Part shown: in pieces, positions 3,483-49,197 of the stretch
Layout: each line of letters starts with the position of its first letter
Numbering within the stretch: position 1 is the first letter of the stretch
Origin: Microthrixaceae bacterium
GTDB taxonomy: Bacteria > Actinomycetota > Acidimicrobiia > Acidimicrobiales > DATDAH01
Length of the DNA: 64,000 bases
Assembly (NCBI GenBank): GCA_020637195.1
Contig: JACJWK010000010.1
Span: 1,674 to 65,673, forward strand
Direction of reading: 5' to 3'
Translations under genes and position numbers: made by a program
The notes under the pieces: generated by a model
Database searches by the model: none
What the model saw: only the letters and a program-made list of their open reading frames with translations
Told to the model about the DNA's origin: nothing

Positions 3483-3580
3483 GCCCGGCGCCTGCGCCCT
3501 TCCCGGGCCTCGCGTAGCCTGTGGCCCGTTGGGGCCGCGACGTCGTCGGGCCACGAGGAGTCCCGAGGAAGGGTGGACCG

Positions 3581-4069: not shown

Positions 4070-4078
4070 GCCACGCCG

Positions 4079-4705
4079 TCAGCCCACGCGCTCGAAGAGG
4101 TACGCGAACGGCGACGTGGTGTAGGCGACCCCGCGACCGGAGCGGTGGAGGGACTCCCTCGTGATCTCGACGTCACGCTTCGGCACGAGGTACCGCTCGA
4201 GACCGCTGCCGTCGAGCCGGTACCGGCCGTCACGGGATCGCACCACGCCGGCGAGCCGGTAGCGGTCGTCGATCGACGCCATCGCCGCGTCGCCGTGGCT
4301 GGCGTTGACCAGCAGGTGCCCGCCGGGGCGCAGGTACCGCGTGCAGTGCTCGGAGACGAAGCCCGCGTACAGCGACACGACCAGGTCGAACGACCGCTCC
4401 TCGAGCGCGAGCGGCTCCTGGTAGTCGGCGTGCAGGAACCGGAACGTGTGCCGGCCCGGGTCCGCGCCGCGCTCGGCGAGGAGCGCTCGCACCCCCTCCT
4501 CGTCCGAGAAGAACTGGTTCGCCCGTCGGTCGACGTCGACGTAGGTCACCGAGGGAAAGACGAACGACGGCGCGAGGTCGACGTAGGAACCCGGATAGAG
4601 GACCGCCGACACGTCGAGGCCCTGGGCCACGGCGGCGAACAGCGGCCGGCGGTCGCCGACCGCCCGGTCCTGCGTCTCCCACAACTTCCGCGTCCGGTCG
4701 AGCAC
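4079..4705 (-). CDS. Putative class I SAM-dependent methyltransferase-like protein
   Basis: 'VLYPGSYVDLAPS...FDLVVSLYAG...YLRPGGHLLV' resembles methyltransferase motifs I/II/post-II. Recognition is weak. Confidence 0.45.
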   Translation of the reverse strand: MLDRTRKLWETQDRAVGDRRPLFAAVAQGLDVSAVLYPGSYVDLAPSFVFPSVTYVDVDRRANQFFSDEEGVRALLAERGADPGRHTFRFLHADYQEPLALEERSFDLVVSLYAGFVSEHCTRYLRPGGHLLVNASHGDAAMASIDDRYRLAGVVRSRDGRYRLDGSGLERYLVPKRDVEITRESLHRSGRGVAYTTSPFAYLFERVG

Positions 4706-4866
4706 CCCGTCACGCTAGGCGGCCCGCGGTCGCGCGGGCGGCGTCTCGTCGCGGGAGGCGTTCCGCCAGGTGGCGGATGTGCCAGCGCCCGGCGCCGGCT
4801 CTCAGCCCACCGCCGAGCACCCCCGGTCGGGCACGGCGCGCCCCCCTGTGCCGATCGTGTCCGGCC

Positions 4867-6210: not shown

Positions 6211-6670
6211 GGCGGCAGTCCTCTCGTGGTCCGGTCGTGGCGGTGACCGTACCAACACCGGCTCCTCCCGTCCCGAGCCCGGCGTGGCACGCCCGGCCCA
6301 CGGGTTCGCCGTCCGACGTGCTCCGGTTCCCCGTGGCGCCGACCGGCGATCCGTGCGCTGGCGGCCATGAGACCGACACATCGACCTGTGGACCTGACGG
6401 GACGGCGTTCAACCCTTCAGATTGGGCAGATCCATGGATTCTCCCCGTGGGGCGAGCGCGCCCCCCGTTCGTCTCTTGGTGAGATGCACCCGCCTCCCTG
6501 ACATCCGATACGCAGGATCGTCGGTTCGTCGCCCCGGCGGTGGCCCTGGCCCGGGAACCCGAACAGGGATCCATCGGTCGACGCCGTGAACGACACGCCA
6601 TCGGGTGTCCCACGGCGAGTCGCGAACCGGCACGTATGGCATTGTGACCTCTGCTCTGCAGGAGGAGTCG

Positions 6671-7462
6671 ATGGGGTCGCTCGATGATGCGGTGAGGCTC
6701 GAGGCCGCGGGACCCGGCGTGTGGACCAGCTACGCCGATCCCGACCATGAGTCGATCAATGGCATGTTCGGCGGATGGACCGCAGCTGTCTCGGTGGCAG
6801 CAGTGATCGCATCGGCCGACGAGGCGCTGCGGCCCTCCGCGCTCACGATCAGCTACCTCTCGGTGGTGACACCCCAGACGACATCTGCCATCCACGTCGA
6901 ACGCCTGGGCGGCAGCCGCTCGATCGACCACTGGCGGGCCGACCTCCGGGCGTCCGATACCGGCGAGCTGCAAGCGACAGCGTCGATGGTGCTCACCGCT
7001 CGGCGCCCCACCGAGGCGCACGACCAGTGGTCGATGCCTCGGGCAGCGGCGCCGAACGCACTGCCCGAGTTCCACGCTCCCGGAACCCAGGGTCAGCAGA
7101 CCGACATCCGCCGCCTGTCCGGCGACGACGATGGGTTCGGCAGCGGCGACACGCGAACAACCCACTGGATCCGCATGGCATCGGGTCGGCAGCTCGACCA
7201 CCTCCAGCTCGCCTATCTGGCAGATCAGTTCGCACCGCGCTCGTTCTACTGGGGTGTCGGCCGGCGGCCATCTGCCACCCTCACGATGACGGTCTACTTC
7301 CACGCCACCGACGACGAGCTCGCGGAGGTGGGGACCGGCTACATCCTGAACGAGGCCACCGGAACCCGAGGCTCACATGCCACCTCGGGCCAGCAGGCCC
7401 GCATGTGGAGCCCGACTGGCGCCCTTCTGGCCACGACAGAGCAACTGGCCTGGTACCGCTGA
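6671..7462 (+). CDS. Acyl-CoA thioesterase II-like (double hot-dog) protein
   Basis: GGAGGAG SD upstream of the ATG at 6671. 'MFGGWTAAVSVAA' plus a C-terminal 'SGQQARMWSPTGALLATTEQLAWYR' resemble the TesB-like family. Confidence 0.6.
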   Translation: MGSLDDAVRLEAAGPGVWTSYADPDHESINGMFGGWTAAVSVAAVIASADEALRPSALTISYLSVVTPQTTSAIHVERLGGSRSIDHWRADLRASDTGELQATASMVLTARRPTEAHDQWSMPRAAAPNALPEFHAPGTQGQQTDIRRLSGDDDGFGSGDTRTTHWIRMASGRQLDHLQLAYLADQFAPRSFYWGVGRRPSATLTMTVYFHATDDELAEVGTGYILNEATGTRGSHATSGQQARMWSPTGALLATTEQLAWYR

Positions 7463-7621
7463 AAGGGCTCCGACTCGACCTCGACACCCCGTGGGAGGAC
7501 TGGGAGTAGAACTTCGACCACATGCGCCCGATCCGCCCACGCGAGACCGAAGTGCGCTCGTTCGAACCCTACCGCTGACCGGCGGTTCTCCACCTGGCTG
7601 TTGTGAGATCGACACAGTTCG

Positions 7622-7804: not shown

Positions 7805-10075
7805 ATGTCCGTGTCCATCCTGAAGTCTCGACGGAGCGTGGTCGCCGCGGCGCTCCTCGCGGTCGGCGGTGCCGCGTGGCTCCTCGCCGGCAGCACCGCG
7901 GCGGGTGCGCAGGAACCGGAGGTCGCGGGCGCGGCCGCGTCGATCGTGCTCACCGCGGACCAGGACACGGTGGTCGCCGGCGACGACATCGACTACCACG
8001 TGACGGTCACCAACACCGGCATCGTCGCGCTGACCGGGGTCGAGGTCATCGACCCGGCGGCGCCGGCCTGCTCGGGCCCGCTCGTCGACCTCGCGCCCGA
8101 GGACGAGTTCACCTACGACTGCTCGTACACGACGGTCGACCCCGACGACGTGGGCACCTACCCGAACGCCGCGGTCGTGATCTCGAACGAGGGCGCGCTC
8201 GCGCTCTCCGACACCGTCGAGACCACGGTCGAGGCGCCGCTGTCGGAGCTCACGGTCGTGAAGTCGGCCGACGAGACCGACGTGGTCGAGGGCGACGACA
8301 TCCACTTCCACGTCGAGGTCACCAACAGCGGCAACCAGCCCCTCACCGGCGTCGGCGTCACCGACGCCAGCGTCCCGGCCTGCGACTCGGCCATCGGGGC
8401 GATGGCGCCCGACGCGGTCACCACCATCGACTGCACCTACACCACCACCGGCGCCGATGTCGGCACGTTCAGCAACATCGCCGCGGCGGGCTCCGACCAG
8501 ACCGCGCCCGTCGACTCGAACCAGGTCGACGTCACGGTGGCCGCCGAGAGCTTCGGCCTCGACGCCACCCTGGCCGTCGACCAGGACGAGGTCGTCGCCT
8601 CCGAGGACCTCGACTACCACCTCACGCTGGAGAACACGGGCAACCGGCCGCTGACCGGGCTGGTCGTCACCGACGCCGCCGTGCCCGACTGCGAGGGCCC
8701 CGTGGCCGACCTGGCCGCCGGCGCCACGACGACGGTCGACTGCACCTACACCACCACCGACGGCGACGTCGGCACGTTCGCCAACAGCGCCTCGGTCGAC
8801 TCGAACGAGCTGACGACCGTCGACAGCAACGAGGTCACGAGCACCGTCATCGAGGCCGACCCCTCGATCACCATCGACCAGGACGTCGACCAGACCTCGG
8901 TGTTCATCACCCAGGACATCGACCTGCACATCACCCTCGAGAACACGGGCAACCAGACCCTCACCGGCATCCAGATCGTCGACTTCAAGGTGCCCGACTG
9001 CGCGGGACCGGTGCCCGACCTCGCCCCGGGCGCCAGCACCACCATCGACTGCACCCACCAGGCCGTGAAGGCCGACGCGCCGACCTTCCGCAACACCGCG
9101 GCGGTGGACACCACCCAGACGCCCCTCCTGGCGTCGAACCAGATCAGCGTGTCGGTCACCATCCCCACCTGCGGGAACCTGCCGGTCAACGTCTCGCTGG
9201 CCGAGGGTGACGTCCCCACCAACGGCAACGACGTCATCTTGGGCACCCCGGGCCCCGACGTCATCAACGGCATGGGCGGCGTCGACCGGGTCTGCGGGCT
9301 CGGGGGGGCTGACGTCATCAACGGCGGGTCGGGCAACGACCAGCTGTTCGGGATGAACGGCGACGACGAGATCCACGGCGGGTCGGGCAACGACTACATC
9401 ACCGGCGACGGCGGCGGCGGCATCAACCCCGGTGAGGACGTGATCACCGGCGACGGCGGCGCCGACTACCTCGACGCCGGCAACGGCGCTGACCAGGTCG
9501 ACGGCGGGCCGGGCAACGACACGGTGCTCGGCTACGGCGGCGACGACGTCCTCGAGGGCGGCGACGGCAACGACTACCTCGACGGCTTCGGCGGTCGTGA
9601 CACGATCACCGGCGGCGCCGGCGCCGACTCGATCTTCGGCGGCCCCATCGGCGACACGCTCGAGGGCGGCGACGGCAACGACTCGATCGTCGGCCAGGAC
9701 GGCAGCGACACCATCCGGGGTGGCGCCGGCACCGACACCCTGGTGGGCGGCAACGGCACCGACCTGCTGCTGGGCGACGGCGGGGACGACAACATCTCGG
9801 GCCAGGTGGGCAACGACACCGCCCGGGGCGGGCCCGGCAACGACGCGGTGCAGGGCGGCGCCGGCAACGACACCGTCCGGGGCAGCGGCGGCAACGACGT
9901 CGTGTTCGGCGACGCCGGCAACGACCGGGTGTTCGGCGACGCCGGCATCGACCGGGTGCTCGGCGGGCCCGGCAACGACCGGCTGAGCGGCGGTACCGGC
10001 CAGGACGGCTGCTTCGGTGACTCCGGGTTCGACGTGGCCGACGCCACCTGCGACGCCACCGCCGGCGTGCCCTGA
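7805..10075 (+). CDS. Secreted repeat protein: Sec signal peptide, 4 DUF11-type ('conserved repeat domain') modules, then a long RTX/hemolysin-type Ca-binding nonapeptide array
   Basis: Signal 'MSVSILKSRRSVVAAALLAVGGAAWLLAGSTAAGAQE'. Four ~103-aa repeats each contain 'D[IL]DYH[VL]T[VL].NTGN..LTG[VLI].V.D...P.C' and a second Cys ('DCTYTTT'). These are followed by more than 20 GGxGxDxxx repeats ('GGSGNDQLFGMNGDDEIHGGSGNDYITGDGG...'). Confidence 0.85.
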   Translation: MSVSILKSRRSVVAAALLAVGGAAWLLAGSTAAGAQEPEVAGAAASIVLTADQDTVVAGDDIDYHVTVTNTGIVALTGVEVIDPAAPACSGPLVDLAPEDEFTYDCSYTTVDPDDVGTYPNAAVVISNEGALALSDTVETTVEAPLSELTVVKSADETDVVEGDDIHFHVEVTNSGNQPLTGVGVTDASVPACDSAIGAMAPDAVTTIDCTYTTTGADVGTFSNIAAAGSDQTAPVDSNQVDVTVAAESFGLDATLAVDQDEVVASEDLDYHLTLENTGNRPLTGLVVTDAAVPDCEGPVADLAAGATTTVDCTYTTTDGDVGTFANSASVDSNELTTVDSNEVTSTVIEADPSITIDQDVDQTSVFITQDIDLHITLENTGNQTLTGIQIVDFKVPDCAGPVPDLAPGASTTIDCTHQAVKADAPTFRNTAAVDTTQTPLLASNQISVSVTIPTCGNLPVNVSLAEGDVPTNGNDVILGTPGPDVINGMGGVDRVCGLGGADVINGGSGNDQLFGMNGDDEIHGGSGNDYITGDGGGGINPGEDVITGDGGADYLDAGNGADQVDGGPGNDTVLGYGGDDVLEGGDGNDYLDGFGGRDTITGGAGADSIFGGPIGDTLEGGDGNDSIVGQDGSDTIRGGAGTDTLVGGNGTDLLLGDGGDDNISGQVGNDTARGGPGNDAVQGGAGNDTVRGSGGNDVVFGDAGNDRVFGDAGIDRVLGGPGNDRLSGGTGQDGCFGDSGFDVADATCDATAGVP
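7943..9180 (+). repeat. Four tandem ~309-nt coding repeats (DUF11-like modules)
   Basis: Periodicity is seen in the translated sequence. Boundaries are approximate. Confidence 0.7.
9230..10010 (+). repeat. RTX-type 27-nt (nonapeptide) coding repeat array
   Basis: Reiterated 'ggcggc..ggcaacgac' units encode GGxGNDxxx. Boundaries are approximate. Confidence 0.75.
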
Positions 10076-32782: not shown

Positions 32783-32881
32783 GCCTGCAACCTACCGCCT
32801 CGCCGGTGGGCTCCCGAGCATGGGCCGGCGCCCCGGGCGCGGCCGCGCCCGACCCCGTCGCGGCACCCGTAGGGTGGCGCC

Positions 32882-34782
<1,901 letters not shown>

Positions 34783-34789
<7 letters not shown>

Positions 34790-35637
34790 CCGAGCCGTTC
34801 GAGCGCCTTCGGGCGGCGCTGCCAGTCCTTGTCGACCTTGACGAAGAGCTCGAGGTAGGCCCCCTCGGGGAGCTGGCGGCGCACCTCGGTCCCGACCTGC
34901 TTGAGCACCGAGCCCTTCTTCCCGATCACGATGCCCTTCTGGGACTCGCGCTCGACGAGGATCTCGCAGCGGATCCTCGGCCACTCCCACTCGGTCACCC
35001 GGGTGGCGATCGAGTGCGGGAGCTCGTCGCGGGTGACCGCGAGCAGCTGCTCGCGCACGAGCTCGGCCACCCAGAAGGCCTCGGGCACGTCGGTGACCAT
35101 GTCCTCGGGGTAGTACGGCGGCCCCTCGGGGAGGCGGGACACGAGGTGCTCGACGAGGACGTCCACGCCCTCACCCGTGCGCGCCGACACGGGGAAGTAC
35201 TCGCTCAGGTCCAAGGTGGCGGCGCGGGCGAGCTGCCCGAGCACCTCCTCGGGGGCGGCGGCATCGACCTTGTTGACCACGACGACCGCGTCCCGGGGCA
35301 CACGCTGCGCCACGAAGCGGTCCCCCGGCCCCAGCGGCGCGCTGGCATCGATGACGAGGCACACGACGTCGACGTCACCGATGGCCCCGGTGGCGGTGGC
35401 GTTCAGGCGATTGCCCAGCTCGGTGCGGGGACGGTGGATGCCCGGCGTGTCCACGAAGACCACCTGGGCCTCCAGATCGCCGGCGGGACCCCGCTGGTTG
35501 AGCACGCCCCGCACCTCGGTGCGGGTGGTCTGGGGCTTGTCCGAGACGATGGCGACCTTCGTGCCGAGGATCGTGTTCACGAGCGTCGACTTGCCCACGT
35601 TGGGGCGGCCCACGACGGTGACGAAGCCCGAGCGCAC
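34783..35637 (-). CDS. era: GTPase Era
   Basis: G1 'GRPNVGKSTL', G3 'DTPG', G4 'NKVD', and a KH domain at the C-terminus. Confidence 0.95.
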
Positions 35638-35646
35638 CGGGGAACG

Positions 35647-36951
35647 CTACCGGGGCTCCGCGGCGTCGGTCCCGCGCACGGGCGTGATCCGGACCCGGCC
35701 GATGCGCCGCGCCTGCACCCGCTCGGCCCGCAGCTCGTAGCCCGAGAACTCGACGGCCTCACCCTCGGAGGGCACCCGGCCGAGCTGGCTGTACAGGAAG
35801 CCTCCGACGGTGTCCCAGTCGCCGTCGGGCACCTCGATGCGCAGGAGGTCGTTGACCTCGTCGATGGGGAGGCGGGCGTTGACCCGCAGCCCGCCGTTGG
35901 GCAGCGGCTCGACCATCGGCTCCTCGACGTCGAACTCGTCGCGGATCTCTCCGACCAGCTCCTCGATGAGGTCCTCGAGGGTGACCATGCCGGCGGTCCC
36001 GCCGTACTCGTCGATGACGATGGCGATGTGGAACCGCTCCTCCTGCATCTGGCGGAGCAGGTCGGGCACGCGCTTCGTCTCGGGGATGTACACGGCCGGT
36101 CGCAGCACCGTGGAGACCTCCTGGGCGCCCGCGTCGTCGCGCTCGGCCCGCATCAGGTCCTTGGCGTAGACGATGCCGGTGATGTCGTCGATGCCCTCGC
36201 CGTAGGCCGGCAGGCGGCTGTAGCCGTGGAGGATGGCGACCTCGATGGCGGCGTCGATCTGGAAGTCGGCCGCGATCGTGACCATGTCGGTCCGCGGGAC
36301 CATGACCTCGCGGGCGATGGTGTCGCCGAACTCGATGATCGACTCGATCAGGGCCTGCTCCTCGAGCTCGATCACGTCCTCCTCGGCGGCGGCGCCCGCC
36401 AGCGCCAGCAGCTCCTCCTCCGAGACCGAGGGCCCCTCCCGCCGTCCCTTCCCCGGCAGCAGGACGTTCGACATGCCGATGAGCCCGCGGGTGGCCCAGC
36501 GCAGCGGCCAGAAGCGGGCCAGCCCGCCCACCAGCGGCGCGAGGCGCACGGCGACCGGCCCGGTGTGTTGGAGCGCGTACGTCTTGGGCATGGCCTCGGT
36601 GACGACGAACAGCACGCCGATCTCGACGACGAGCGCGCCGGCCACGCCGGCGAGCCCCCACCAGTCGTAGGCGACGACCGCGGTGACGGTGGCGAGCCCC
36701 AGGTGACAGACCAGCAACAGCAACAGGACCGGGTTGAGGACCTCGTCCCGTCGCTCGAGGAGCTCGGGCAGCGTGCCGCCACGCCGCGCCTCGACGGGCG
36801 CGTCGCCCTCGGTCGCCGCGAGCTCCTCCTCGATGGCGGCGGCCCGCGCCCGACCGAGGTGCAACAGGGCGGTCTCGGCCATCGCCAGGACCGCCGCGAA
36901 CACGACGAGGGCCACGACGACCAGCGCGCCCAGCAGGACGGTGCCGCTCAT
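35647..36951 (-). CDS. CNNM/HlyC-CorC family transporter-associated protein (DUF21 + CBS pair + CorC_HlyC)
   Basis: N-terminal TM helices, a CBS region 'IAREVMVPRTDMV...', and the C-terminus 'VGGFLYSQLGRVPSEGEAVEFSGYELRAERV'. Its ATG overlaps the ybeY stop (ATGA). Confidence 0.85.
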   Translation of the reverse strand: MSGTVLLGALVVVALVVFAAVLAMAETALLHLGRARAAAIEEELAATEGDAPVEARRGGTLPELLERRDEVLNPVLLLLLVCHLGLATVTAVVAYDWWGLAGVAGALVVEIGVLFVVTEAMPKTYALQHTGPVAVRLAPLVGGLARFWPLRWATRGLIGMSNVLLPGKGRREGPSVSEEELLALAGAAAEEDVIELEEQALIESIIEFGDTIAREVMVPRTDMVTIAADFQIDAAIEVAILHGYSRLPAYGEGIDDITGIVYAKDLMRAERDDAGAQEVSTVLRPAVYIPETKRVPDLLRQMQEERFHIAIVIDEYGGTAGMVTLEDLIEELVGEIRDEFDVEEPMVEPLPNGGLRVNARLPIDEVNDLLRIEVPDGDWDTVGGFLYSQLGRVPSEGEAVEFSGYELRAERVQARRIGRVRITPVRGTDAAEPR

Positions 36952-37472
36952 CCCCGACGCTCCAGGCCGGCGGCCCCGAGCAGCTCCCGCTCGCGCGCCA
37001 CCATCGCGGCCGTCTGGTCGGCGTCGGCGTGGTCCCAGCCGAGCACGTGCAGCACCCCGTGCACGACGAGCAGCGCCAGTTCGGCCTCGTAGCCGCCCGG
37101 TGGCACCGCGTTGCGCCGCGCCACCGCGGGGCACACCACGACGTCACCGAGCAGTCGCGGCTCGCCGGGCCGATCGGTCGGATCGGCGGCGGGCCCGTTC
37201 GGCGACCCGTCGAGGGGGAAGGACAGGACGTCGGTGGGCCCCGCTTCGCCCAGGTGCTCGATGTGCAGGCTCGCGATGGTGTCCTCGTCGACGAAGGCGA
37301 CCGCAAGCTCGGCCGGTCCGGTCACGCCCTCGGCGACGAGGACGTCGGTGGCCAGCCGCGCCCAGCGGTCGGTGTCGACGGGCTCCTCCCCGGCCCGCGG
37401 CGACCCGGAGCGGTCGTCGGTGACGACGACGGTCGGAGGGACCGGCCCCGGGCCCGCGGGCGGCGAGCTCAC
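36948..37472 (-). CDS. ybeY: rRNA maturation endoribonuclease YbeY
   Basis: Zn motif 'HGVLHVLGWDH'. Its GTG start overlaps the phoH stop (GTGA). Confidence 0.85.
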   Translation of the reverse strand: MSSPPAGPGPVPPTVVVTDDRSGSPRAGEEPVDTDRWARLATDVLVAEGVTGPAELAVAFVDEDTIASLHIEHLGEAGPTDVLSFPLDGSPNGPAADPTDRPGEPRLLGDVVVCPAVARRNAVPPGGYEAELALLVVHGVLHVLGWDHADADQTAAMVARERELLGAAGLERRG

Positions 37473-38419
37473 GACGGGTCGAGTGCCGAGCGCTCGTAGG
37501 CGTTCACGATGTCGGCCACGATGCGGTGGCGCACGACGTCGGCGGCGCCCAGGCGGACGAAGGCCAGGCCGTCGATGCCCGACAGGACCGGTTCGAGCCC
37601 GCCGAGCCCGCTGCGCCCCCCGGGCACGTCGACCTGGGTCACGTCGCCGGTGATGACGGCCTTGGAGCCGAAGCCGATGCGGGTGAGGAACATCTTCATC
37701 TGCTCGGGCGTCGTATTCTGGGCCTCGTCGAGGATGATGAAGCTGCGGTTCAGGGTGCGGCCCCGCATGAACGCCAGCGGGGCCACCTCGACGGTCCCCT
37801 TGTCGAGCAGGCGCTGCGCCCCCTCCGCCTCGACCATGTCGTAGAGCGCGTCGTACAGCGGCCGGAGGTACGGGTCCACCTTGGCCATCAGGTCCCCGGG
37901 CAGGAACCCCAGCCGCTCCCCCGCCTCGACCGCCGGTCGGGTGAGGATGATCCGGTCGACCTCCTTGGCCTGGAGGGCCTGGACCGCGCAGGCGACCGCC
38001 AGCCAGCTCTTGCCCGTCCCGGCCGGGCCGATGCCGAAGGTGATGATGTTCTGGCGGATGGCGTCCACGTAGCGCTTCTGCCCGCTCGACTTGGGGCGCA
38101 CGGTCCGGCCCCGGGCCGAGCGCCACACCTCGGTGGTGAGGACCTCCGAGGGCCGTTCGTCGGCCCGCACCATGTCGATGGTGCGGGCGACCCCGGACGG
38201 CTCGAGGGCGTGACCCTGTTGGAGCAGGAGCACGAGCTCGTCGAACAGGCGGCCCACCAGCTCCGCGTCGGCCCCGGTGACCGTGATCTCGTTGCCCCGG
38301 ACGTGGATGGACGCCTCGAACGCGCCCTCCACGAGGCGCAGCAGCTCGTCGCGCTGGCCCAGCAGGCCCACCATGAGGTGGTTGCCGGGGACGCTGACGC
38401 GGACCTCGGTCTCGGGCAT
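37469..38419 (-). CDS. phoH: PhoH-family ATPase
   Basis: 'GPAGTGKSWLAVA', 'FIILDEAQNTTPEQMKMFLTRIG' and 'VVRHRIV'. Confidence 0.9.
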   Translation of the reverse strand: MPETEVRVSVPGNHLMVGLLGQRDELLRLVEGAFEASIHVRGNEITVTGADAELVGRLFDELVLLLQQGHALEPSGVARTIDMVRADERPSEVLTTEVWRSARGRTVRPKSSGQKRYVDAIRQNIITFGIGPAGTGKSWLAVACAVQALQAKEVDRIILTRPAVEAGERLGFLPGDLMAKVDPYLRPLYDALYDMVEAEGAQRLLDKGTVEVAPLAFMRGRTLNRSFIILDEAQNTTPEQMKMFLTRIGFGSKAVITGDVTQVDVPGGRSGLGGLEPVLSGIDGLAFVRLGAADVVRHRIVADIVNAYERSALDPS

Positions 38420-38463: not shown

Positions 38464-38718
38464 TCACGCCGTCTCGTCGTCCCCGCCGTCGTCGGCGCCG
38501 GGGCCGGCCTCGGGGTACAGGTGCTCGAGGCTCCCCGGTTCGATGCGACAGGACTCGATGAAGGCGTCGACCTCGGACTCCTTCAGCCGGATGACCCGCC
38601 CGAACCGATAGGCAGGCAGGTCGCCGTTGTCGATGAAGCGGTACAGGGTGCGCGGCGTGATGCCCACCCGCTTCGCCGCGTCCGCGGTCGACAGCCACCG
38701 GATCTCGTCGTCCTCCAT
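38464..38718 (-). CDS. Excisionase/MerR-superfamily small HTH DNA-binding protein with an acidic tail
   Basis: 'LSTADAAKRVGITPRTLYRFIDNGDLPAYRFGRVIRLKESEVDAFI' matches the HTH_17/excisionase-type pattern. Confidence 0.7.
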   Translation of the reverse strand: MEDDEIRWLSTADAAKRVGITPRTLYRFIDNGDLPAYRFGRVIRLKESEVDAFIESCRIEPGSLEHLYPEAGPGADDGGDDETA

Positions 38719-38827
38719 CGCACGCAGCCTAGACAGGCCGTCGGGCCGTCACGCCCCCTGGCCGCCACTCTGGCACCGTTTCGTGCGCTTTCGGCCTGCC
38801 CGACGCCGAGGCGGTGGCGATGGGCGG

Positions 38828-40189
38828 TCAGCCCCGCCGGCGTCGCACGGTTCGCCGGGCCCGGCGGACGAGCCGGCCCGGAGCGGAGCGAAGTCGGGGC
38901 CGGGGCCGAGGGGCCCCGCTCGCCGGCTCGGCACGACCCTCACGGTCGAGGTCGTCACGCAGCCCGGCGAGGGCAGCGTCCAGGCGAGCGACGGACTCGT
39001 CCACGGTGGCCTCGGTGTGCGCCAGGCTGGCCAGGGCGTTGCCGTCGGTGAGCACGCCGTGGACCAGCGCGCCCTCCAGGAACAGCTCGCGCACCCGCGG
39101 ACGCTCGACCCCGTGCTGGTCGGGGAAGTCGAACGACATCCGTTGCGGGGGGCCGAGCAGGACGGCCTCGACGCCGTGGCGTTCCGCTGCGCCCAGGTAC
39201 CCGTCGCGCAGGCGGGTCCCCATCGCGGCGAGGTGGCCCGCGACGTCGCGCGACTCGAGCACGTCGAGGACCGCCGACGCGGCGGCCAGCGAGAAGGTCT
39301 CGCCGCGGAAGGTCAGCCCGAACCCGACCGACGGCAGCAACTCCATCAGGTCGGCCCGGCCGACGACCGCGGAGAGCGGTAGCCCGTTGGCCAGGGCCTT
39401 GCCCAGGCAGGCGAGGTCCGGCGTCACCCCGAAGTGCTCCTGGGCACCGCCGTTGGCGAGGCGGAAGGCGGTGACCACCTCGTCGAACACGACCACCGCA
39501 CCGTTGCGGTGCGCGAGGTCGATCACGCCCTCCAGGTAGCCCGGCTCGGGCAGGTACTGGTTGGTGGGCTCCATCACGACCGCGGCCACGGCGCCCCGGT
39601 GGCGACGGAACGCCTGGGCCAGCGCCTCGAGGTCGTTGTAGGGGAACGGCTCGACCAGCGTGCGGAGCACCGAAGGGATGCCCTGCACGTCGGGGTGCAC
39701 GCACGTGTACCACTCGTGGAACCCGTGGAACCCGTGCTGGAGCACGAGGTCGCGGCCGGTGGCCGCTCGGGCGACCCGGACGGCGGCGTTGAGCGCGTCC
39801 GAGCCGTTCTTCGCGAAGGCGACGCGCTCGGCACACGGCACCAGGACGCAGATCCGCTCCGCGACCTCGACCTCGACGGGGTGCATGAGCGACAGCGTCG
39901 GCCCGGCTCCGAACTGGGCCCGCACGGCCGCTTCGACCGCCGGGTGGCGGTAGCCGAGGAACACCGGCCCCCACCCGTTGAGCCAGTCCAGGTGCACCCG
40001 TCCGGTGCTGTCGGTGACCTCGGCGCCGTCCGCAGCGACGGCGAAATGCGGGAACAGCGCCCCGCTCGGATGACGGAGCGGGCGCGTCACCATCCCGTCG
40101 AGCCCGCCGTACGCGAGCACTGCGTGCGCCCGGTCGAGCAGGTCCTCGGTGGCCGCCACCGGGTCGGCGGCGAGCGGGCTGCCAGGCAT
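38828..40189 (-). CDS. Class-III PLP-dependent aminotransferase (glutamate-1-semialdehyde aminomutase-like)
   Basis: 'FAKNGSDALNAAVRVAR', 'VVFDEVVTAFRLANGGAQEHFGVTPDLACLGKALANGLPLSAVVG' (PLP Lys in 'LGK'). SD GGGGAAGAGG upstream of ATG 40189. The C-terminal ~35 aa are Arg-rich low complexity. Confidence 0.8.
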   Translation of the reverse strand: MPGSPLAADPVAATEDLLDRAHAVLAYGGLDGMVTRPLRHPSGALFPHFAVAADGAEVTDSTGRVHLDWLNGWGPVFLGYRHPAVEAAVRAQFGAGPTLSLMHPVEVEVAERICVLVPCAERVAFAKNGSDALNAAVRVARAATGRDLVLQHGFHGFHEWYTCVHPDVQGIPSVLRTLVEPFPYNDLEALAQAFRRHRGAVAAVVMEPTNQYLPEPGYLEGVIDLAHRNGAVVVFDEVVTAFRLANGGAQEHFGVTPDLACLGKALANGLPLSAVVGRADLMELLPSVGFGLTFRGETFSLAAASAVLDVLESRDVAGHLAAMGTRLRDGYLGAAERHGVEAVLLGPPQRMSFDFPDQHGVERPRVRELFLEGALVHGVLTDGNALASLAHTEATVDESVARLDAALAGLRDDLDREGRAEPASGAPRPRPRLRSAPGRLVRRARRTVRRRRG

Positions 40190-40226
40190 CCTCTTCCCCG
40201 GTGTGGTCGTCAGGGGTGCGGGCTCC

Positions 40227-40991
40227 GTGCCAGAGTGCGGCGGAGTGTACACGCACCACAAATTCGACCATGCGTTCGAGCCGGGGACGCCCACGCGCGT
40301 GAGCTACCTGGTGTGCGCCGTGCCCCGCTCGGGCAGCTCGCTGCTCTGCGAGCTGCTGTGCCTGACCGGGGTGGCGGGGGCACCCACCGAGTTCTTCGAC
40401 GCCGAGCAGCGACGCGGTTTCGAGCGCGTGTGGGGCAGCGACGGCCTCGACGACTACGTGCGCCACCTGCTGAGGACGAAGACGAGCCCCAACGGGGTCT
40501 TCGGGGCCAAGGCCCACCACCCTCAGCTCGCGGAGACCTTCGGCGACCGTGACCTGGCCGCGGTGTTCCCGGACCTCCACGTCGTGTACCTCACCCGGCG
40601 GGACCACCTCCGCCAGGCGATCAGCTACGCACGGGCGATCCAGTCCGGGCGCTGGGCCTCCACCCATCGGGGTCGCGGTCGCGAGCGCTTCCGCCGCCGC
40701 CAGATCGACGATCTCCTCGCCCGCATCGACCGGGAGGAACGGGCCTGGGAGCGCTGGTTCGAGCGGCACCGACTCCAACCGCTGCGCCTCGACTACGAGT
40801 CGATCGTGACCGACCCGGCCGCGGCCGTGGCGGCCGTCCTCGAGCTCGTCGGGGTGCTCGACGGGACTCCCGACCCGGCGGCCGCCACCCTCGCCCGCCA
40901 GGCGGATCGACGGACCGAGCGGTGGGTGCGCAGGTACCGCCGGCGCCACCTGGACGGCCCGGTCACACCGGAGGGTGTTGTGGGAGGCTGA
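40227..40991 (+). CDS. Stf0-family (PF09037-like) PAPS-dependent sulfotransferase
   Basis: 'SYLVCAVPRSGSSLLCELLCLTGVAGAPTEFF', 'SPNGVFGAKAHH' and 'LARQADRRTERWVRRYRR' resemble, from memory, mycobacterial Stf0 (trehalose 2-sulfotransferase). The start is uncertain: GTG at 40227, 40245 or 40299. Confidence 0.7.
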   Translation: MPECGGVYTHHKFDHAFEPGTPTRVSYLVCAVPRSGSSLLCELLCLTGVAGAPTEFFDAEQRRGFERVWGSDGLDDYVRHLLRTKTSPNGVFGAKAHHPQLAETFGDRDLAAVFPDLHVVYLTRRDHLRQAISYARAIQSGRWASTHRGRGRERFRRRQIDDLLARIDREERAWERWFERHRLQPLRLDYESIVTDPAAAVAAVLELVGVLDGTPDPAAATLARQADRRTERWVRRYRRRHLDGPVTPEGVVGG

Positions 40992-40995
40992 GCGG

Positions 40996-42702
40996 ATGGC
41001 GACGGTGCCGGTACGGCTCTCGACGCGCTCGGCCGAGCCGGTCGGCGGAACCGGCCTCGTCACCGACGCCGAGCGGCGGGCGGCCGAGCACCGACACCGC
41101 CGGACGGTCGAGCGCGACCTCCTCTCGGGGGACACCAGGTGGCGGAGCACGCCGTACGAGGCCCACGTGCAGTTCTCGACCTACTGCAACCTCGCCTGCG
41201 TCATGTGCTGGGGCGACCGCCCGCCTCCCTCGCGGCGGCTCGAGCCCGCCGTGCTCGCCCGGGTCGACGCGCAGATCGCGCCGGGCCTGTCGATCCTGAC
41301 CCCCCACGACGGGAGCGAGCCGCTGGCCGTGGGGTGGGAGTCGGCGCGCGACCTCGCCCGCCGGTGGAATGTGCGCCTCAGCCTGGTGACGAACGGCACC
41401 TTCCTCGACGCCCGGCGCATCGAGGAGGCCGTGCCGCTGACCGAGACGTTGTTCGTCTCCCTCGACAGCCACGTGCCGGAGATCTTCGAGCAGCTGCGCC
41501 CAGGGGCCGACGCTCGCCGCATCTACGCGAACGCCGCCGCCGCCGCGGCGGCCTGCCGTGCCGAGGGGGTCGACTGCATCGCCAACATCGTGCTGATGGT
41601 CGAGAACGCCCCCTTCCTCGACCGCACCCTCGAGTGGCTCCACGCCCATGGGATCGACTCGGCGAACGTGATCCAGCTCATCGACGTCAACGGCCGCTCG
41701 GACATGCACGACCCGTTGCGGCACCTGTCGGTCGAGTACGTCGAAGGCGTGCGGCGCCGGGCGCACGAGACCGCCCGACGACTCGGCAGTCGCCTGATCT
41801 GGCTGGTCGGCCCGACATCGACCACCGACGCCCGACCCCGGCCGACGCGCGCCACCCCGGGCGCCGACCTACGGGCCCGGCGCGTCGCGTACGACCGCTG
41901 GAACGAGCGCCTGCGACTGCGCCACCCGGGCTACTGCCCCAAGGTCTTCGACCGGGTGCGCGTGACCGTGGACGGCGCGACGGGGCCGTGCAGCTACGCC
42001 GCGAACGGCGAGCTCGAGTACGGCACGCTGGCCACGCACGACTTCGAGACGCTCTGGAACGGCGAGACCGCACGGGACCTACGACGGGCGATGGCCACCG
42101 GCGATCCGCCCGTGCCGTGCGACACGTGCCGGTGGCGGGACCTGCCGGCGCGGCGATCCGGGCTTCCCTTCACCCGCAGTGTCGAGGCCGCCTTCCCGCT
42201 CCCGGCCACCGGGCTGGTGGTCGACGCGCCCGATCACGGCGCGCGTCTGGTGTCGCCGCCGTCGTTCGTCGTCCGCCCGCCCGACGGCCACCCCCGACGC
42301 TGGCTGCTGGCCCTGTCCCTGGGCGGCGAGACCACCGAGGTCCACCGCGTCGAGGTCGGAGCGGGCCCGCCGGGTGGCGAGACCACGGTCACCGTCCCGC
42401 CCCGGACGTGGCGCAGCCTACGGCCCAACGTCGGCTACTGGTGGGCCCTCTGGGCGATCGCCGACGACGGATCGGCGATCCGCAACGCGGAGCTGTCCGC
42501 TCTGGTGCGTCACCGATCGATCCCGAGGCGGCCCGGCAGCGGGCTCCGCTACCGCGACCGTCCGCAGGAGGTGCCCGTGCACCTCGGGGGTGGGCGCACG
42601 CCCGGCTTCGTCGACCGGAGCGGAGCGGCCCCCGCGACCGGATCGTCGAGCAGGCGCGGGCGCGGGCGCGGGCTGCTCCGCCGGCTGCTGCGCCGCCGCT
42701 GA
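40996..42702 (+). CDS. Radical SAM enzyme with a partial SPASM/twitch-like Cys motif and a ~170-aa unassigned C-terminal domain
   Basis: CX3CX2C 'STYCNLACVMCWG'; 'GYCPKVFDRVRVTVDGATGPCSY...PCDTCRW'. The GGGAGG SD lies inside the last codons of the Stf0-like gene, and the ATG is 5 nt after its stop. Confidence 0.8.
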   Translation: MATVPVRLSTRSAEPVGGTGLVTDAERRAAEHRHRRTVERDLLSGDTRWRSTPYEAHVQFSTYCNLACVMCWGDRPPPSRRLEPAVLARVDAQIAPGLSILTPHDGSEPLAVGWESARDLARRWNVRLSLVTNGTFLDARRIEEAVPLTETLFVSLDSHVPEIFEQLRPGADARRIYANAAAAAAACRAEGVDCIANIVLMVENAPFLDRTLEWLHAHGIDSANVIQLIDVNGRSDMHDPLRHLSVEYVEGVRRRAHETARRLGSRLIWLVGPTSTTDARPRPTRATPGADLRARRVAYDRWNERLRLRHPGYCPKVFDRVRVTVDGATGPCSYAANGELEYGTLATHDFETLWNGETARDLRRAMATGDPPVPCDTCRWRDLPARRSGLPFTRSVEAAFPLPATGLVVDAPDHGARLVSPPSFVVRPPDGHPRRWLLALSLGGETTEVHRVEVGAGPPGGETTVTVPPRTWRSLRPNVGYWWALWAIADDGSAIRNAELSALVRHRSIPRRPGSGLRYRDRPQEVPVHLGGGRTPGFVDRSGAAPATGSSSRRGRGRGLLRRLLRRR

Positions 42703-43773
42703 TCAGCGGAGGCGGACCGCGACCTCGTTGGCCAGGAGGCGACCGGCGACCGTGAGGTGGGCACGCCCGGCGTCGTCGACCACCACGAGGTCGGCGAGCG
42801 CCGGGTCGGCGTCGAGCGGCAGCGCGTCCGCGGGGACGCCGTCCGTGGTGCGCAGGGCGAGCTGCAGGCCCTCGACCCGGCGCCCCTCGTCGTCGAGCCG
42901 CTCGTCCGCCGCCACCGGCGAGCGGCCGTGCTCGACGGCGTCGACGTAGCGCTCCGGCGTCCGCACGTTCCAGTAGCGACGTCCGCGACGGTGCCCGTGG
43001 GCGGCGCAGCCGATCGCCAGGTAGTCGCCCTGGGACCAGTACAGGAGGTTGTGGCGGCACTCCTGGCCCGGACGTGCCCAGTTCGAGATCTCGTACCAGT
43101 CGAGGCCGGCGGCCGCGAACCGCTCGGTGGCCAGCAGGTACTTGTCGGCCTGGTCGTCGTCGTCGGGATGGCGCTCGGGGGCGTCGAACAGCGCGGTCCC
43201 GGGCTCGACCGTCAGCCCGTACGCGCTCACGTGCGGTGGGTCGAGGGCGAGTGCGGCGTCGAGCGACTCGGCCCAGTCGGCGAGCGACTCCCCGGCGGCG
43301 CCGTAGATCAGGTCGAGGCTCCACCGCTCGAACCCCGTGGCGCGCAGGAGGGCCACGGCGCGGCCCACCCCGTCCGGGTCGTGCGTGCGGCCGAGGGCCT
43401 CGAGCACGTGAGGCACCATGGACTGCACCCCCAGCGACACCCGGTCGACCCCGCCGGCCGCGTAGGTGCGCAGCATCGTGTCCGTGACCGTGTCGGGGTT
43501 GCACTCGACCGTCACCTCCGCGCCGGGGGCCAGCGGCAGCGGCGCCACGACCTCGAGCAGCGCCTCGGCGTCCACCATCGACGGCGTCCCCCCGCCCACG
43601 AACACGCTCGTCACCGGCGGGAGCCCCGCCGCCACCTCGGCCTCGACCTGACGCCGGCAGGCCCGCAGGTAGCGGTCGACGAGGTGGGCGCGGTCGGTCC
43701 AGGTCGCGAACGCGCAGTAGTCGCAGCGAGCCGCGCAGAACGGGATGTGGACGTAGCAGCCGAAGGGCTCCAC
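42703..43773 (-). CDS. hemW: Radical SAM heme chaperone HemW (HemN-like, oxygen-independent coproporphyrinogen oxidase family)
   Basis: 'YVHIPFCAARCDYCAFAT', 'SVFVGGGTPS' and 'RVSLGVQS'. Confidence 0.88.
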   Translation of the reverse strand: MEPFGCYVHIPFCAARCDYCAFATWTDRAHLVDRYLRACRRQVEAEVAAGLPPVTSVFVGGGTPSMVDAEALLEVVAPLPLAPGAEVTVECNPDTVTDTMLRTYAAGGVDRVSLGVQSMVPHVLEALGRTHDPDGVGRAVALLRATGFERWSLDLIYGAAGESLADWAESLDAALALDPPHVSAYGLTVEPGTALFDAPERHPDDDDQADKYLLATERFAAAGLDWYEISNWARPGQECRHNLLYWSQGDYLAIGCAAHGHRRGRRYWNVRTPERYVDAVEHGRSPVAADERLDDEGRRVEGLQLALRTTDGVPADALPLDADPALADLVVVDDAGRAHLTVAGRLLANEVAVRLR

Positions 43774-43869: not shown

Positions 43870-44430
43870 CTACTTCTTGGTGCGGACCGAGGCCAGGCCC
43901 AGGTCGTCGAGCCGGTTGCCGGCACCGTCGACGCCCGTGCCGAGGATGCAGGCGATGGCCCGCAGGTCGTCACGACGGATCGTGAGCACCCGCCCGTTGA
44001 AGTCCTGGCGCTGCACCTGGATCATCGTCAGGTAGCGGTTGAGCATGTCGGCCTCGGGCCCGGTGAGGCTCTCGAGGCGGGTGAGGTCGATGGTGACCGA
44101 GTTGAAGCCGGGCTGGGTGGCGACCCGCCCGTCGGTGAGGTCCACGACCTCGTCGTCGTCGCGGGCCAGGCCGAAGTCCGGCCCCTCGTCGACCGGCAGC
44201 AGCTGGTCGACCGGGACGTTGTAGAACCGGGCGAGGCGCTGCAGTCGGGGCACGGAGATGGCCCGCTCACCGCGCTCGTAGGCGCCGAGCACCGACGCCT
44301 TGAACTCCTGGTTGGAGGTGGCCTCCACCTCCTGCAGGGAGAGCTTCTTCTGCCGCCGGATGGCCCGGAGGCGCTCGCCCACCTTGCGCCCGTAGCCTGC
44401 CGAGGCTCCCTCGGCCGTCATCTCACTCAT
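43870..44430 (-). CDS. XRE-family HTH transcriptional regulator with a C-terminal extension
   Basis: 'GERLRAIRRQKKLSLQEVEATSNQEFKASVLGAYERGERAISVPRLQRLARFYNVPVDQLL'. Confidence 0.7.
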   Translation of the reverse strand: MSEMTAEGASAGYGRKVGERLRAIRRQKKLSLQEVEATSNQEFKASVLGAYERGERAISVPRLQRLARFYNVPVDQLLPVDEGPDFGLARDDDEVVDLTDGRVATQPGFNSVTIDLTRLESLTGPEADMLNRYLTMIQVQRQDFNGRVLTIRRDDLRAIACILGTGVDGAGNRLDDLGLASVRTKK

Positions 44431-47430: not shown

Positions 47431-49197
47431 ATGACCCTCGCGACGGCGGATGACTCGTTCGACCCGTATGCCCCGGACGAGGCCATCGACGCCCGCGAGT
47501 ACCTGCGCACGCTCTGGCACGACAAGTGGCGCATCCTCGGCCTGGCGCTCGGCCTGGCCGTCGTGTTCGGGCTGCTCGGCGCCTTCGCCATCAGCCCGCG
47601 CTTTCGCACCGAGGCCACCATCGCGCTCGACCCGGTCGCGCTGGCCGAGCTGCTCGACACCACGGGCCAGCCGCGCGACCTGCAGGCCGACCTGGCCGCC
47701 GAGGCCAACGTCGTGGCCGACAACGGCCTCGAGGCCGCCGTGGCCGAGCAGCTCGGCTTCCCGTTCGACGTGGACATCCACGTCACCGAGGGCTCGAGCT
47801 CGTCGCTCGACTTCGGCGCCAGCGCCGGCGACGCGGCCCAGGCGCAACAGGCCCTCGACGCCCTGGTCGCGGCCTACCAGACCACCCGCATCGAGCTCGG
47901 CAGCCAGCTCGTGGACGACCAGATCAGCCCCCTGCGCGACCAGATCGCCGAGCTCCAGGCCGGCCGCGACGACGCCAGCGCCCCCCTCGACTCGATCCAG
48001 GCCCAGCTCGACGACAACCCCAGCGCCGAGTACCGGGCCCAGCTGCTCGAGCAGCAGGCCAACCTCCAGGCGCAACTGGGCGACACGCTGAACAGCTTCG
48101 ACGACCAGATCGGTCAGGCCCAGACGCAGATCCAGCGCCTCAACGGGTTCAAAGACGCCATCGCCACGGGCACGAACGCCCAGGTCGTGCAGGGCCCGAC
48201 CACCACCCAGACGACACCGGGCGGCGCCCGCCTCGCGGCCATCGGCTTCATCGTCGGCGCCCTGGCCGGGGTGTTCTGGTCCGTCGGCCGCCGGGTGCTC
48301 GACAAGTCCATCCGCAGCCGCCGCGCCCTCGAGGCGGCCACGGGCCACCGCGTGCTCGGGCTCATCCCCAAGGTGGTCGACTGGGACGAGGACCAGGTCC
48401 AGAACGTCGCGCTCGAGCATCCGACGTCGCCGCCGGCCGAGGCGTACCGCACCCTGCGCACCTCCCTGCGCTTCCTCACCGTCGACGACGACGTGCGCCG
48501 CATCCTCGTCACCAGCGCGGGCGAGGGCGAGGGCAAGACGACGACGGTGGCCAACCTGGGGGTCACGCTCGCCCGGACGGGCAAGCGCGTGCTGCTCGTC
48601 GACGCCGACCTGCGCAAGCCCCGGCTGCACGAGTTCTTCGGCGTGGACGACGACCGCGGGCTGTCCGACGCCCTCCAGGGTGCGTCGGTCGAGGGCCTGC
48701 TCGTTCCCGTCGAGGGCATCGACGCCCTGCAGCTGCTGCCCGCGGGCGGCGTGCTCGCCGACCCGTCCGAGCACCTCGGCTCCGACCGCGCCGCCGAGGT
48801 GCTCGCCGAGCTCGACGGGCTCGCCGACCTCGTCCTGTTCGACGCTCCGCCCGTGCTGCCGGTGTCGGACGCCCTCGAGGTCGGTCGCCAGATGGACGGG
48901 GTGCTGCTCGTCGCCACCGCCGGTCGCACGCAGCCGAAGGAGGCCGAGCTGGCCGCCGAGCTGCTCACCCAGGTCGGGGCGCCGTTGGTGGGCTCGGTGC
49001 TGAACGCCATCTCCCGCGACATGGGTGACGGCTACGCCTTCGAGTACCGCTACGAGCTGGACGGGTCCGCCGCGCCGGACGGCGCGGACACTCCCTCCGG
49101 CGACGCCGGGGCCGATCCGCAGCACGAGGCGACCGCCGGACCCGACGACGAGGACGTGCCGGCGGCGTCGGACCCCGAGGGCGCACCCGCCCGCTGA
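47431..49197 (+). CDS. Polysaccharide co-polymerase / bacterial tyrosine (BY) autokinase (Wzz domain + CpsD/CapB-type ATPase)
   Basis: Two TM helices flank a coiled periplasmic region. Walker A' 'ILVTSAGEGEGKTTTVANL', 'VLLVDADLRKPRL' and 'DLVLFDAPPVLPVSDA'. C-terminal Tyr cluster 'GYAFEYRYE'. Confidence 0.8.
   Translation: MTLATADDSFDPYAPDEAIDAREYLRTLWHDKWRILGLALGLAVVFGLLGAFAISPRFRTEATIALDPVALAELLDTTGQPRDLQADLAAEANVVADNGLEAAVAEQLGFPFDVDIHVTEGSSSSLDFGASAGDAAQAQQALDALVAAYQTTRIELGSQLVDDQISPLRDQIAELQAGRDDASAPLDSIQAQLDDNPSAEYRAQLLEQQANLQAQLGDTLNSFDDQIGQAQTQIQRLNGFKDAIATGTNAQVVQGPTTTQTTPGGARLAAIGFIVGALAGVFWSVGRRVLDKSIRSRRALEAATGHRVLGLIPKVVDWDEDQVQNVALEHPTSPPAEAYRTLRTSLRFLTVDDDVRRILVTSAGEGEGKTTTVANLGVTLARTGKRVLLVDADLRKPRLHEFFGVDDDRGLSDALQGASVEGLLVPVEGIDALQLLPAGGVLADPSEHLGSDRAAEVLAELDGLADLVLFDAPPVLPVSDALEVGRQMDGVLLVATAGRTQPKEAELAAELLTQVGAPLVGSVLNAISRDMGDGYAFEYRYELDGSAAPDGADTPSGDAGADPQHEATAGPDDEDVPAASDPEGAPAR

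Follow-up and report, generated by a model that had tools for sequence, protein, structure and literature searches.

A three-gene cassette encoding a radical SAM enzyme, an aminotransferase and a sulfotransferase, inserted beside hemW in an uncultured actinomycete lineage, is probably an undescribed tailoring pathway

Results

Three enzymes are encoded between hemW and a small HTH gene

We analysed a stretch of 64,000 nucleotides from a Microthrixaceae bacterium (contig JACJWK010000010.1; the whole stretch, ~74% G+C, is called the window), in which genes for a class-III pyridoxal phosphate (PLP) aminotransferase, a Stf0-family sulfotransferase and a radical S-adenosylmethionine (radical SAM) enzyme lie inside a block of housekeeping genes that includes hemW and phoH. 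We report that these three genes were inserted as a cassette, that they very likely form a conserved functional unit, and that they probably encode an undescribed pathway to a sulfated, aminated compound. Genes were called by third-position GC content and then checked with profile searches. An earlier reading of the letters alone (the sequence-only reading) had described four genes here, these three and a small helix-turn-helix (HTH_17) gene, and direct reading and profile searches located all four, with the motifs quoted for them, at the coordinates given there. The cassette has the following features.

~38797-42702: inserted three-gene cassette of ~3.9 kb at the hemW/HTH_17 intergenic spot, delimited by comparison with the relative L091
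38828-40189, minus strand: class-III PLP aminotransferase, like glutamate-1-semialdehyde (GSA) aminomutase, 453 aa (PF00202), with the PLP lysine K264 at 39398-39400
40190-40244: divergent intergenic region of 55 bp between aminotransferase and sulfotransferase genes, presumed to be a shared promoter region
40245-40991, plus strand: Stf0-family sulfotransferase dependent on 3'-phosphoadenosine 5'-phosphosulfate (PAPS), 248 aa, GTG start (PF09037), with the 5'-phosphosulfate-binding (5'-PSB) loop PRSGSS at 40323-40340
40982-40998, plus strand: GGGAGG Shine-Dalgarno sequence in the 3' end of the sulfotransferase gene, its TGA and the ATG of the radical SAM gene (direct reading)
40996-42702, plus strand: radical SAM enzyme, 568 aa (PF04055 and PF13186), with CNLACVMC (CX3CX2C) at 41185-41208
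41929-42138 (aa 312-381), plus strand: twitch-type auxiliary-cluster domain of the radical SAM enzyme, with invariant C314, C332, C375 and C378
42202-42510 (~aa 403-505), plus strand: FN3/Ig-like C-terminal domain of the radical SAM enzyme (structure model)

The sulfotransferase falls within the Stf0-like family by profile search (PF09037, E 3.9e-39, 135 bits against a cutoff of 22). It aligned with the Stf0 structure 1TEX (E 1e-19) in two segments that left a central segment unaligned, with PRSGSS opposite Stf0 QRSGST and RRDHLRQAIS opposite Stf0 HRPDVVSQAVS. The motifs PRSGSSLL, KTxxNG, RxD...QxxS...RAxQ and QAD..W were invariant in 12 sulfotransferase orthologues; thus, the PAPS-binding residues are retained. 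The Stf0 equivalog model (NF047724) gave 115.6 bits against a cutoff of 400. Judged by these matches, the protein is a member of the Stf0 family and not an orthologue of Stf0, so that the name 'Stf0-like' in the sequence-only reading holds at the level of family and PAPS motifs but not of orthology.

Translational coupling of the sulfotransferase and radical SAM genes had also been proposed. The arrangement on which it was based is present, since GGGAGG (40982-40987) and the sulfotransferase TGA (40989-40991) precede the radical SAM ATG (40996) with a gap of 4 nt, but it is not conserved in the nearest relative, the Acidimicrobiales locus L009, where ~80 nt separate the two genes and the tight stop/start arrangement is missing. 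That spacer of L009 contains a tandem duplication at 9930-9972 (cgacaccatgcaa, twice).

The aminotransferase has the class-III PLP fold (PF00202, E 3.5e-43, 148 bits), and K264 of its LGK motif is invariant in 14 orthologues, as are D236 and E237. It scored below every NCBIfam equivalog cutoff, the best being PRK06209 (271 bits against 486), and it is not a HemL, the glutamate-1-semialdehyde 2,1-aminomutase (TIGR00713, 209 bits against 527). After HemL, the nearest solved relatives were aminopentol aminotransferase and the aminoglycoside C-6' aminotransferases, which use polyols and sugars as substrates and react at their aldehyde, ketone or amine groups; models of the aldehyde-aminating enzymes GntE and PigE were matched as well. 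The C-6' aminotransferases (PDB 7LLD/7LM0), FumI (6HBS), GntE and PigE have the class-III fold and PLP lysine in common with the cassette enzyme, but the similarity is at the family level only (~160 bits), and the cassette enzyme forms an orthologous group of its own. That group is large (>100 clusters at ≥50% identity), and most of its members carry an uncharacterised C-terminal domain of ~125 aa that the window's protein does not have.

The radical SAM enzyme is placed in its superfamily by PF04055 (33 bits against a cutoff of 29.5) and by the nearly invariant C64, C68 and C71 (alignment A1). It also matched PF13186 (28.5 bits), and thus each family foreseen by the sequence-only reading was recovered (PF09037, PF04055, PF00202, HTH_17 as PF12728, and PF13186), but the cysteine pattern of a two-cluster SPASM domain was absent. 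Only four cysteines are invariant in the SPASM-type region (C314, C332, C375 and C378; alignment A1); no cysteine follows the CX2C, and the seven-cysteine pattern with CX2CX5CX3C and two auxiliary clusters is missing. When the family profile was compared with PDB sequences, its GxxxPC and CxxC aligned with GNVLPC and CKNC of BtrN, and the CxxC also aligned with CKKC of anSME. The twitch domain of BtrN is a truncated SPASM domain that binds a single auxiliary cluster through four cysteine ligands, and the ketone that BtrN makes from an alcohol is then aminated by an aminotransferase (PMC9012708). From its cysteines, we classify the cassette enzyme as twitch-type (BtrN-like), with one predicted auxiliary cluster.

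The best sequence matches of this enzyme in a PDB profile search were SkfB and anSME. In the AlphaFold2 model (pLDDT 86.5), the N-terminus is a single long helix, and residues ~403-505 form an FN3/Ig-like beta sandwich with generic matches only. Foldseek ranked DesII first, with DesII, CteB, viperin, anSME, SkfB, SuiB, BlsE and BtrN all at similar significance; we therefore rejected a Foldseek search of the full model as a guide to the substrate class, since it does not separate sugar-modifying from peptide-modifying relatives. No NCBIfam family cutoff was reached, which leaves the protein outside every curated family. A word-indexed search returned 38 radical SAM clusters, one of them identical and from a metagenome-assembled genome (MAG) of Acidimicrobiales, the next best 43-44% identical, all of which cover the C-terminal extension, while a full profile search gave 187 representatives at E<1e-30, only a few dozen of them full length. 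Among its more distant relatives, some are fused to a sulfotransferase and others to a GT4 glycosyltransferase.

The cassette occupies a variable spot in a housekeeping block

The genes on either side of the cassette are those named by the sequence-only reading, with one addition, a BldD-like regulator.

34783-35637, minus strand: era (profile searches)
Between era and ybeY, minus strand: CNNM/CorC transporter gene
36948-37463, minus strand: ybeY
37469-38419, minus strand: phoH (PF02562, E 1e-91)
38464-38718, minus strand: small DNA-binding protein of the HTH_17/excisionase family, 84 aa (PF12728, E 1.4e-15; TIGR01764)
42703-43773, minus strand: hemW (TIGR00539, 264.5 bits against a cutoff of 205)
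43870-44430, minus strand: BldD-like regulator with HTH_3 and BldD_C domains, between hemW and rsmE (NF050110, 140 bits, below the cutoff of 250)
Beyond the BldD-like gene on the hemW side: rsmE, dnaJ and hrcA

Relatives were found by PhoH similarity, by scanning metagenome contigs with PhoH and reading their gene order. In L091, whose PhoH is 92% identical, the order is lepA, photolyase, hrcA, dnaJ, rsmE, BldD-like, hemW, HTH_17, phoH, ybeY, CNNM, era, and only 112 bp, with no cassette, separate hemW from HTH_17. In the DNA alignment of the window with L091 (A3), homology runs to the hemW stop codon on one side, where the radical SAM and hemW stop codons abut (TGA directly followed by TCA), and on the other side its limit is near 38796, ~80 nt upstream from the ATG of the HTH gene. 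Thus, the cassette was inserted at ~38797-42702 and comprises exactly three genes, not four, because the HTH_17 gene is contiguous with hemW and phoH in the cassette-free L091.

The same spot is also empty in L097 and L133. In L093 (PhoH 90% identical) it holds a four-gene PotABCD-like ABC transporter (3282-7554), and in L134 it holds two unrelated minus-strand open reading frames (ORFs), one of them membrane/LysM-like. The spacer between hemW and HTH_17 (38719-38796 / 42703 in the window) is thus a variable spot inside an otherwise rigid housekeeping block, where accessory genes have landed repeatedly in this lineage, and the 'accessory pocket' of the sequence-only reading is borne out. At the cassette, overall GC does not shift, and neither flanking repeats nor an integrase or tRNA turned up; GC content at third positions is slightly lower in the cassette (0.91-0.93) than in the neighbouring genes (0.93-0.97; HTH_17 itself 0.93). 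None of the marks of an integrative mobile element (an excisionase with its cargo, an integrase, att repeats) was present at the locus, and promoter/terminator and Rfam scans of the cassette returned nothing.

The HTH_17 gene had been counted as part of the pocket, and this did not hold. Its orthologue stands at the same position without the cassette in L091 (84% identical), L093 (89%), L097 and L133, the ~80 nt upstream of its ATG are conserved between the window and L091, and no HTH homologue was found in any other locus examined that carries the three enzymes. We conclude that the HTH_17 gene is a native member of the housekeeping block and lies outside the cassette. We considered it as a regulator or excisionase of the cassette and rejected this, since it is kept at the site without cargo and is missing where the three enzymes occur elsewhere.

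The three genes recur together across phyla and are fused in all pairs

We scanned one genome per species with the radical SAM family alignment, which yielded 37 full-length loci, and identified partner genes by tblastn with the window's proteins. All 37 loci come from MAGs (Acidimicrobiales, Solirubrobacterales, unclassified Actinomycetota and Planctomycetota). The orthologous aminotransferase adjoins the radical SAM gene in 16 (51-74% identical to the window's protein), a Stf0-type sulfotransferase does so in 11 (39-64% identical), and all three genes stand together in 10, in hosts from Acidimicrobiales, Solirubrobacterales and Planctomycetota. Beyond these counts, the aminotransferase is paired with a more distant radical SAM enzyme in two loci (L055 and L079). 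Gene order and orientation vary among the trio loci. Thus, homologues of these genes are repeatedly co-localised in three bacterial groups, and since the trio recurs in many genomes, its association exceeds chance. Conversely, both of the aminotransferase orthologues that we looked up adjoin a radical SAM/SPASM gene, and one of them also has a Stf0-type neighbour.

The trio closest to the window's is that of L009 (aminotransferase 74%, sulfotransferase 64% and radical SAM enzyme 56% identical). It has the same divergent layout, but in an unrelated genomic context with no phoH, hemW or HTH gene. Its divergent spacer measures 53 bp, compared to 55 bp in the window, and the context of the GTG start is conserved; we found no match to the sigma-70 consensus in the 55-bp region.

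Fusions are known for all three pairs of enzymes. In L005, a sulfotransferase-aminotransferase fusion of 879 aa lies directly upstream of the radical SAM gene, radical SAM/SPASM-aminotransferase fusions are found in P0042 (1225 aa) and P0066, and P0078 joins a sulfotransferase to a radical SAM enzyme. Sulfotransferases of other types are also fused to aminotransferase or radical SAM partners. We clustered the neighbouring ORFs of at least 70 aa in 22 trio loci, smaller ORFs not being searched exhaustively; apart from a second sulfotransferase (Sulfotransfer_1/3) present in some of these loci, no further conserved gene was found. An apparent neighbour cluster from six loci proved heterogeneous (cupredoxin, peptidases, DUF11) and was dropped as a conserved partner. 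In a neighbour-joining tree of the radical SAM family, one large clade shows frequent linkage (19 of 29 sequences).

We are thus confident that the cassette is an inserted, conserved functional unit of three enzymes, and as far as sequence can tell, these are cofactor-competent enzymes that have been selected to stay together and are able to fuse.

Copy number differs among carriers. One Solirubrobacterales MAG has three radical SAM copies (L013, L021 and L049), as does another (L026, L039 and L042), and in each MAG two copies have their own aminotransferase. Some planctomycetal loci (L017 and L089 among them) have two radical SAM genes of the family in tandem, L017 with two tandem copies.

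Two domains move among these proteins. The ~125-aa domain of the aminotransferase group (GW..LL...RPD..AFP...AGF..LP) is attached to aminotransferase, sulfotransferase or radical SAM proteins in different genomes: it occurs in L005 (4509-4925), at the C-termini of aminotransferase orthologues (alignment A5), at the N-termini of the second sulfotransferases in L018, L037 and L049, and at the C-terminus of P0013. It had no Pfam or PDB match, is lacking from the window's proteins, and is not homologous to the FN3-like domain of the radical SAM enzyme (hhalign probability 0.2). A second domain, of ~150 aa (SKGD..LL.L...WHFP...GA.YLV.P...WWL..Y), moves between radical SAM and aminotransferase proteins, being found at the C-termini of P0004, P0005, P0008, P0015, P0021 and P0029 and at the N-terminus of the aminotransferase P0282; it likewise had no Pfam or PDB match.

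Other features near the locus

In the more distant relatives L118, L119, L147, L152, L155 and L160, hemW lies upstream of dnaJ and no HTH_17 gene precedes phoH, while in the window's lineage hemW stands between the BldD-like gene and HTH_17; thus, hemW was relocated within the block. The BldD-like regulator is 94% identical in L091 and present in many Acidimicrobiia-like contigs, and is a conserved BldD homologue outside the sporulating actinomycetes. Divergent from hrcA, at 47431-49197 on the plus strand, lies a gene for a 588-aa protein of Wzz/CbiA-ParA type, with the architecture of a tyrosine-kinase-like chain-length determinant, which has the same position in L091. ARAGORN called an 87-nt tRNA-Arg(ACG) at 34178-34264 (plus strand) within the coding region 32873-34789; Rfam gives no support for it, and it is probably a false positive.

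Discussion

The sequence-only reading had suggested a distinct, possibly undescribed modification pathway, and the recurrent co-localisation and the fusions of the three genes support that suggestion. Every part comes from a known superfamily, and a logic of oxidation followed by transamination has precedents; the locus is a compact cassette for tailoring, with an uncharacterised radical SAM family at its centre. Full-text literature searches for this combination of enzymes returned nothing relevant. The only match that combined the terms was the ascamycin cluster, and we rejected a sulfamate cluster of the ascamycin/nucleocidin type as a counterpart, since it has sulfatases, an amidinotransferase and a B12 radical SAM enzyme instead.

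We infer an order of reactions in which all three enzymes would jointly work on the same substrate; they may do so as a complex, which is hinted at by the fusions of all three pairs and by the shared accessory domains. First, the twitch-type radical SAM enzyme would oxidise a C-OH group by two electrons, giving a carbonyl, after the logic of BtrN, DesII and anSME. The GSA-aminomutase-like PLP enzyme would then transaminate this carbonyl to an amine, as the aminoglycoside C-6' aminotransferases, GntE and FumI do, and with PAPS as donor the Stf0-family enzyme would sulfate either a hydroxyl group or the amine just formed. A sulfated amino compound would result, and one resembling a carbohydrate or cyclitol is the most plausible. 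By analogy with these enzymes, we put the specific chemistry (oxidation, transamination and PAPS-dependent sulfation) at close to an even chance. A carbohydrate- or cyclitol-like substrate is favoured because the Stf0 family has a known sugar acceptor, because relatives of the aminotransferase act on sugars and polyols, because BtrN/BtrS and DesII/DesV offer precedents, and because more distant radical SAM relatives are fused to GT4 enzymes.

The closest parallel is the BtrN/BtrS pair of butirosin biosynthesis (2-deoxystreptamine), which has in common with the cassette the four-cysteine, single-cluster twitch domain, an aminotransferase partner and the alcohol to ketone to amine logic. In sequence, similarity to BtrN is confined to the twitch region (E ~3.5e-6), and BtrN has ~250 aa, compared to the 568 aa of the cassette enzyme with its extra FN3-like domain. 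The cassette further differs by its class-III, GSA-aminomutase-like aminotransferase (BtrS is from a different aminotransferase family), its integral sulfotransferase and its lack of aminoglycoside genes. Thus, the likeness to BtrN is one of architecture and aminotransferase partnership only, and a dehydrogenase function may be suggested by analogy.

Several observations weigh against a single dedicated sugar or cyclitol pathway. In the 22 loci, the trio has no conserved companion that would specify the substrate, such as a gene for a sugar synthase, a glycosyltransferase, a transporter or PAPS synthesis; all carriers are uncultured MAGs with no product on record; and the structural and profile similarity of the radical SAM enzyme is generic, such that SkfB, anSME, CteB and SuiB score as well as sugar-modifying enzymes. 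Moreover, about half of the radical SAM family members have no adjacent aminotransferase or sulfotransferase, among them a basal, purely planctomycetal clade of the neighbour-joining tree that shows no linkage at all, and thus the radical SAM enzyme would be able to work without adjacent partners.

We put forward a fuller picture only tentatively and regard it as somewhat less probable than its negation. The trio would be an unrecognised route, in which a new twitch radical SAM family with an FN3-like domain is complexed with an aminotransferase dedicated to it and with one sulfotransferase or two. It could yield a new class of sulfated amino metabolites, such as a zwitterionic amino-sulfo sugar or cyclitol, or the radical SAM enzyme could act on a sulfated intermediate by a reaction other than plain dehydrogenation. 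Its distribution would be wide among the uncultured Actinomycetota and Planctomycetota of soils and marine habitats.

We considered that the enzymes might modify a peptide or protein, the main alternative. In a pathway like those of peptides that the ribosome makes and that are then modified post-translationally (RiPPs), the radical SAM enzyme would oxidise or cross-link a residue of a peptide or protein encoded elsewhere, the carbonyl would be aminated as in daptides, and a side chain would be sulfated. The majority of characterised SPASM/twitch enzymes do work on peptides, SkfB and anSME are the best PDB profile matches while CteB and SuiB rank high in Foldseek, the FN3-like C-terminal domain would suit a protein-binding role, and the aminotransferase has a weak match to the daptide aminotransferase family. 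Indeed, anSME, SkfB, CteB and SuiB have the same radical SAM core with a C-terminal Fe-S domain and comparable Foldseek and profile scores, but the cassette enzyme has neither CX5CX3C nor an RRE domain, and its neighbours include no gene for a precursor peptide or a sulfatase. As the sequence-only reading had noted, there is no ORF of precursor size: the gaps of 55 bp and 4 bp and the abutting stop codons of the radical SAM gene and hemW leave no coding space in the cassette, and none of the extra ORFs of at least 70 aa in the 22 trio loci, whether a peptidase, an exporter or another gene, is conserved, very small peptides not being rigorously excluded. Furthermore, profile searches found no RRE-type domain, and the N-terminus is a single long helix. 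Thus, we consider a RiPP-like system unlikely.

A role in anti-phage defence or conflict, in which a viperin-like radical SAM enzyme modifies a nucleotide that is then aminated and sulfated to a toxic analogue, appears very unlikely. Weak similarity to pVip and viperin, the patchy distribution, the variable context and the insertion in a variable spot would fit it. Against this, the PADLOC pVip match (27.5 bits) covers the generic radical SAM core only, and neither the aminotransferase nor the sulfotransferase had a PADLOC match; the score for the NCBIfam prokaryotic viperin family (NF038283) was 25 bits against a cutoff of 180, which places the enzyme outside that family. In addition, there are up to three copies per genome in Solirubrobacterales, the neighbours in the loci examined are not defence genes, and viperins are not known to have an auxiliary-cluster domain.

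Hardly any credence is due to a third possibility, that the radical SAM enzyme serves as a maturase in the manner of anSME, introducing a modified residue into a partner enzyme whose gene lies elsewhere. It would agree with the place of anSME among the best sequence and structure matches and with the many family members that stand alone, but there was no anSME among the NCBIfam matches, the CX5CX3C cysteines of the second auxiliary cluster of anSME are missing, no sulfatase or other recurrent target gene was found in the neighbourhoods examined or by clustering of the 22 loci, and the fusion to the aminotransferase would be left unexplained. Finally, a Stf0 orthologue that makes trehalose-2-sulfate as in the sulfolipid-1 pathway, beside two unrelated neighbours, is essentially excluded: the PF09037 match, the alignment to the Stf0 structure and the conserved P-loop (5'-PSB) and 3'-phosphate-binding motifs are shared with Stf0, but the score comes nowhere near the equivalog cutoff, the alignment is broken in two by a central segment that does not align, the sulfotransferase co-varies across phyla with the aminotransferase and radical SAM enzyme, to which sulfotransferases of other types are fused, and, as the sequence-only reading had held, the polyketide synthase (pks2), acyltransferase (papA) and MmpL (mmpL8-type) genes of a sulfolipid-1 locus are absent from this region of the window and from the other trio loci.

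We return to the trio as one tailoring pathway. The cassette is only 3.9 kb, and thus its direct synthesis and expression are feasible. No curated model claims the radical SAM family, and the nearest solved structures match its generic core only, while the lineages that carry it (Acidimicrobiales, Solirubrobacterales and Planctomycetota) are almost wholly uncultured. The finding is of interest for natural products and enzymology, both for sulfated metabolites and for pairs of radical SAM enzymes with aminotransferases. If the three genes do constitute one pathway, they would define a radical SAM family not yet characterised, together with a compact route by which three genes yield a sulfated, aminated product.

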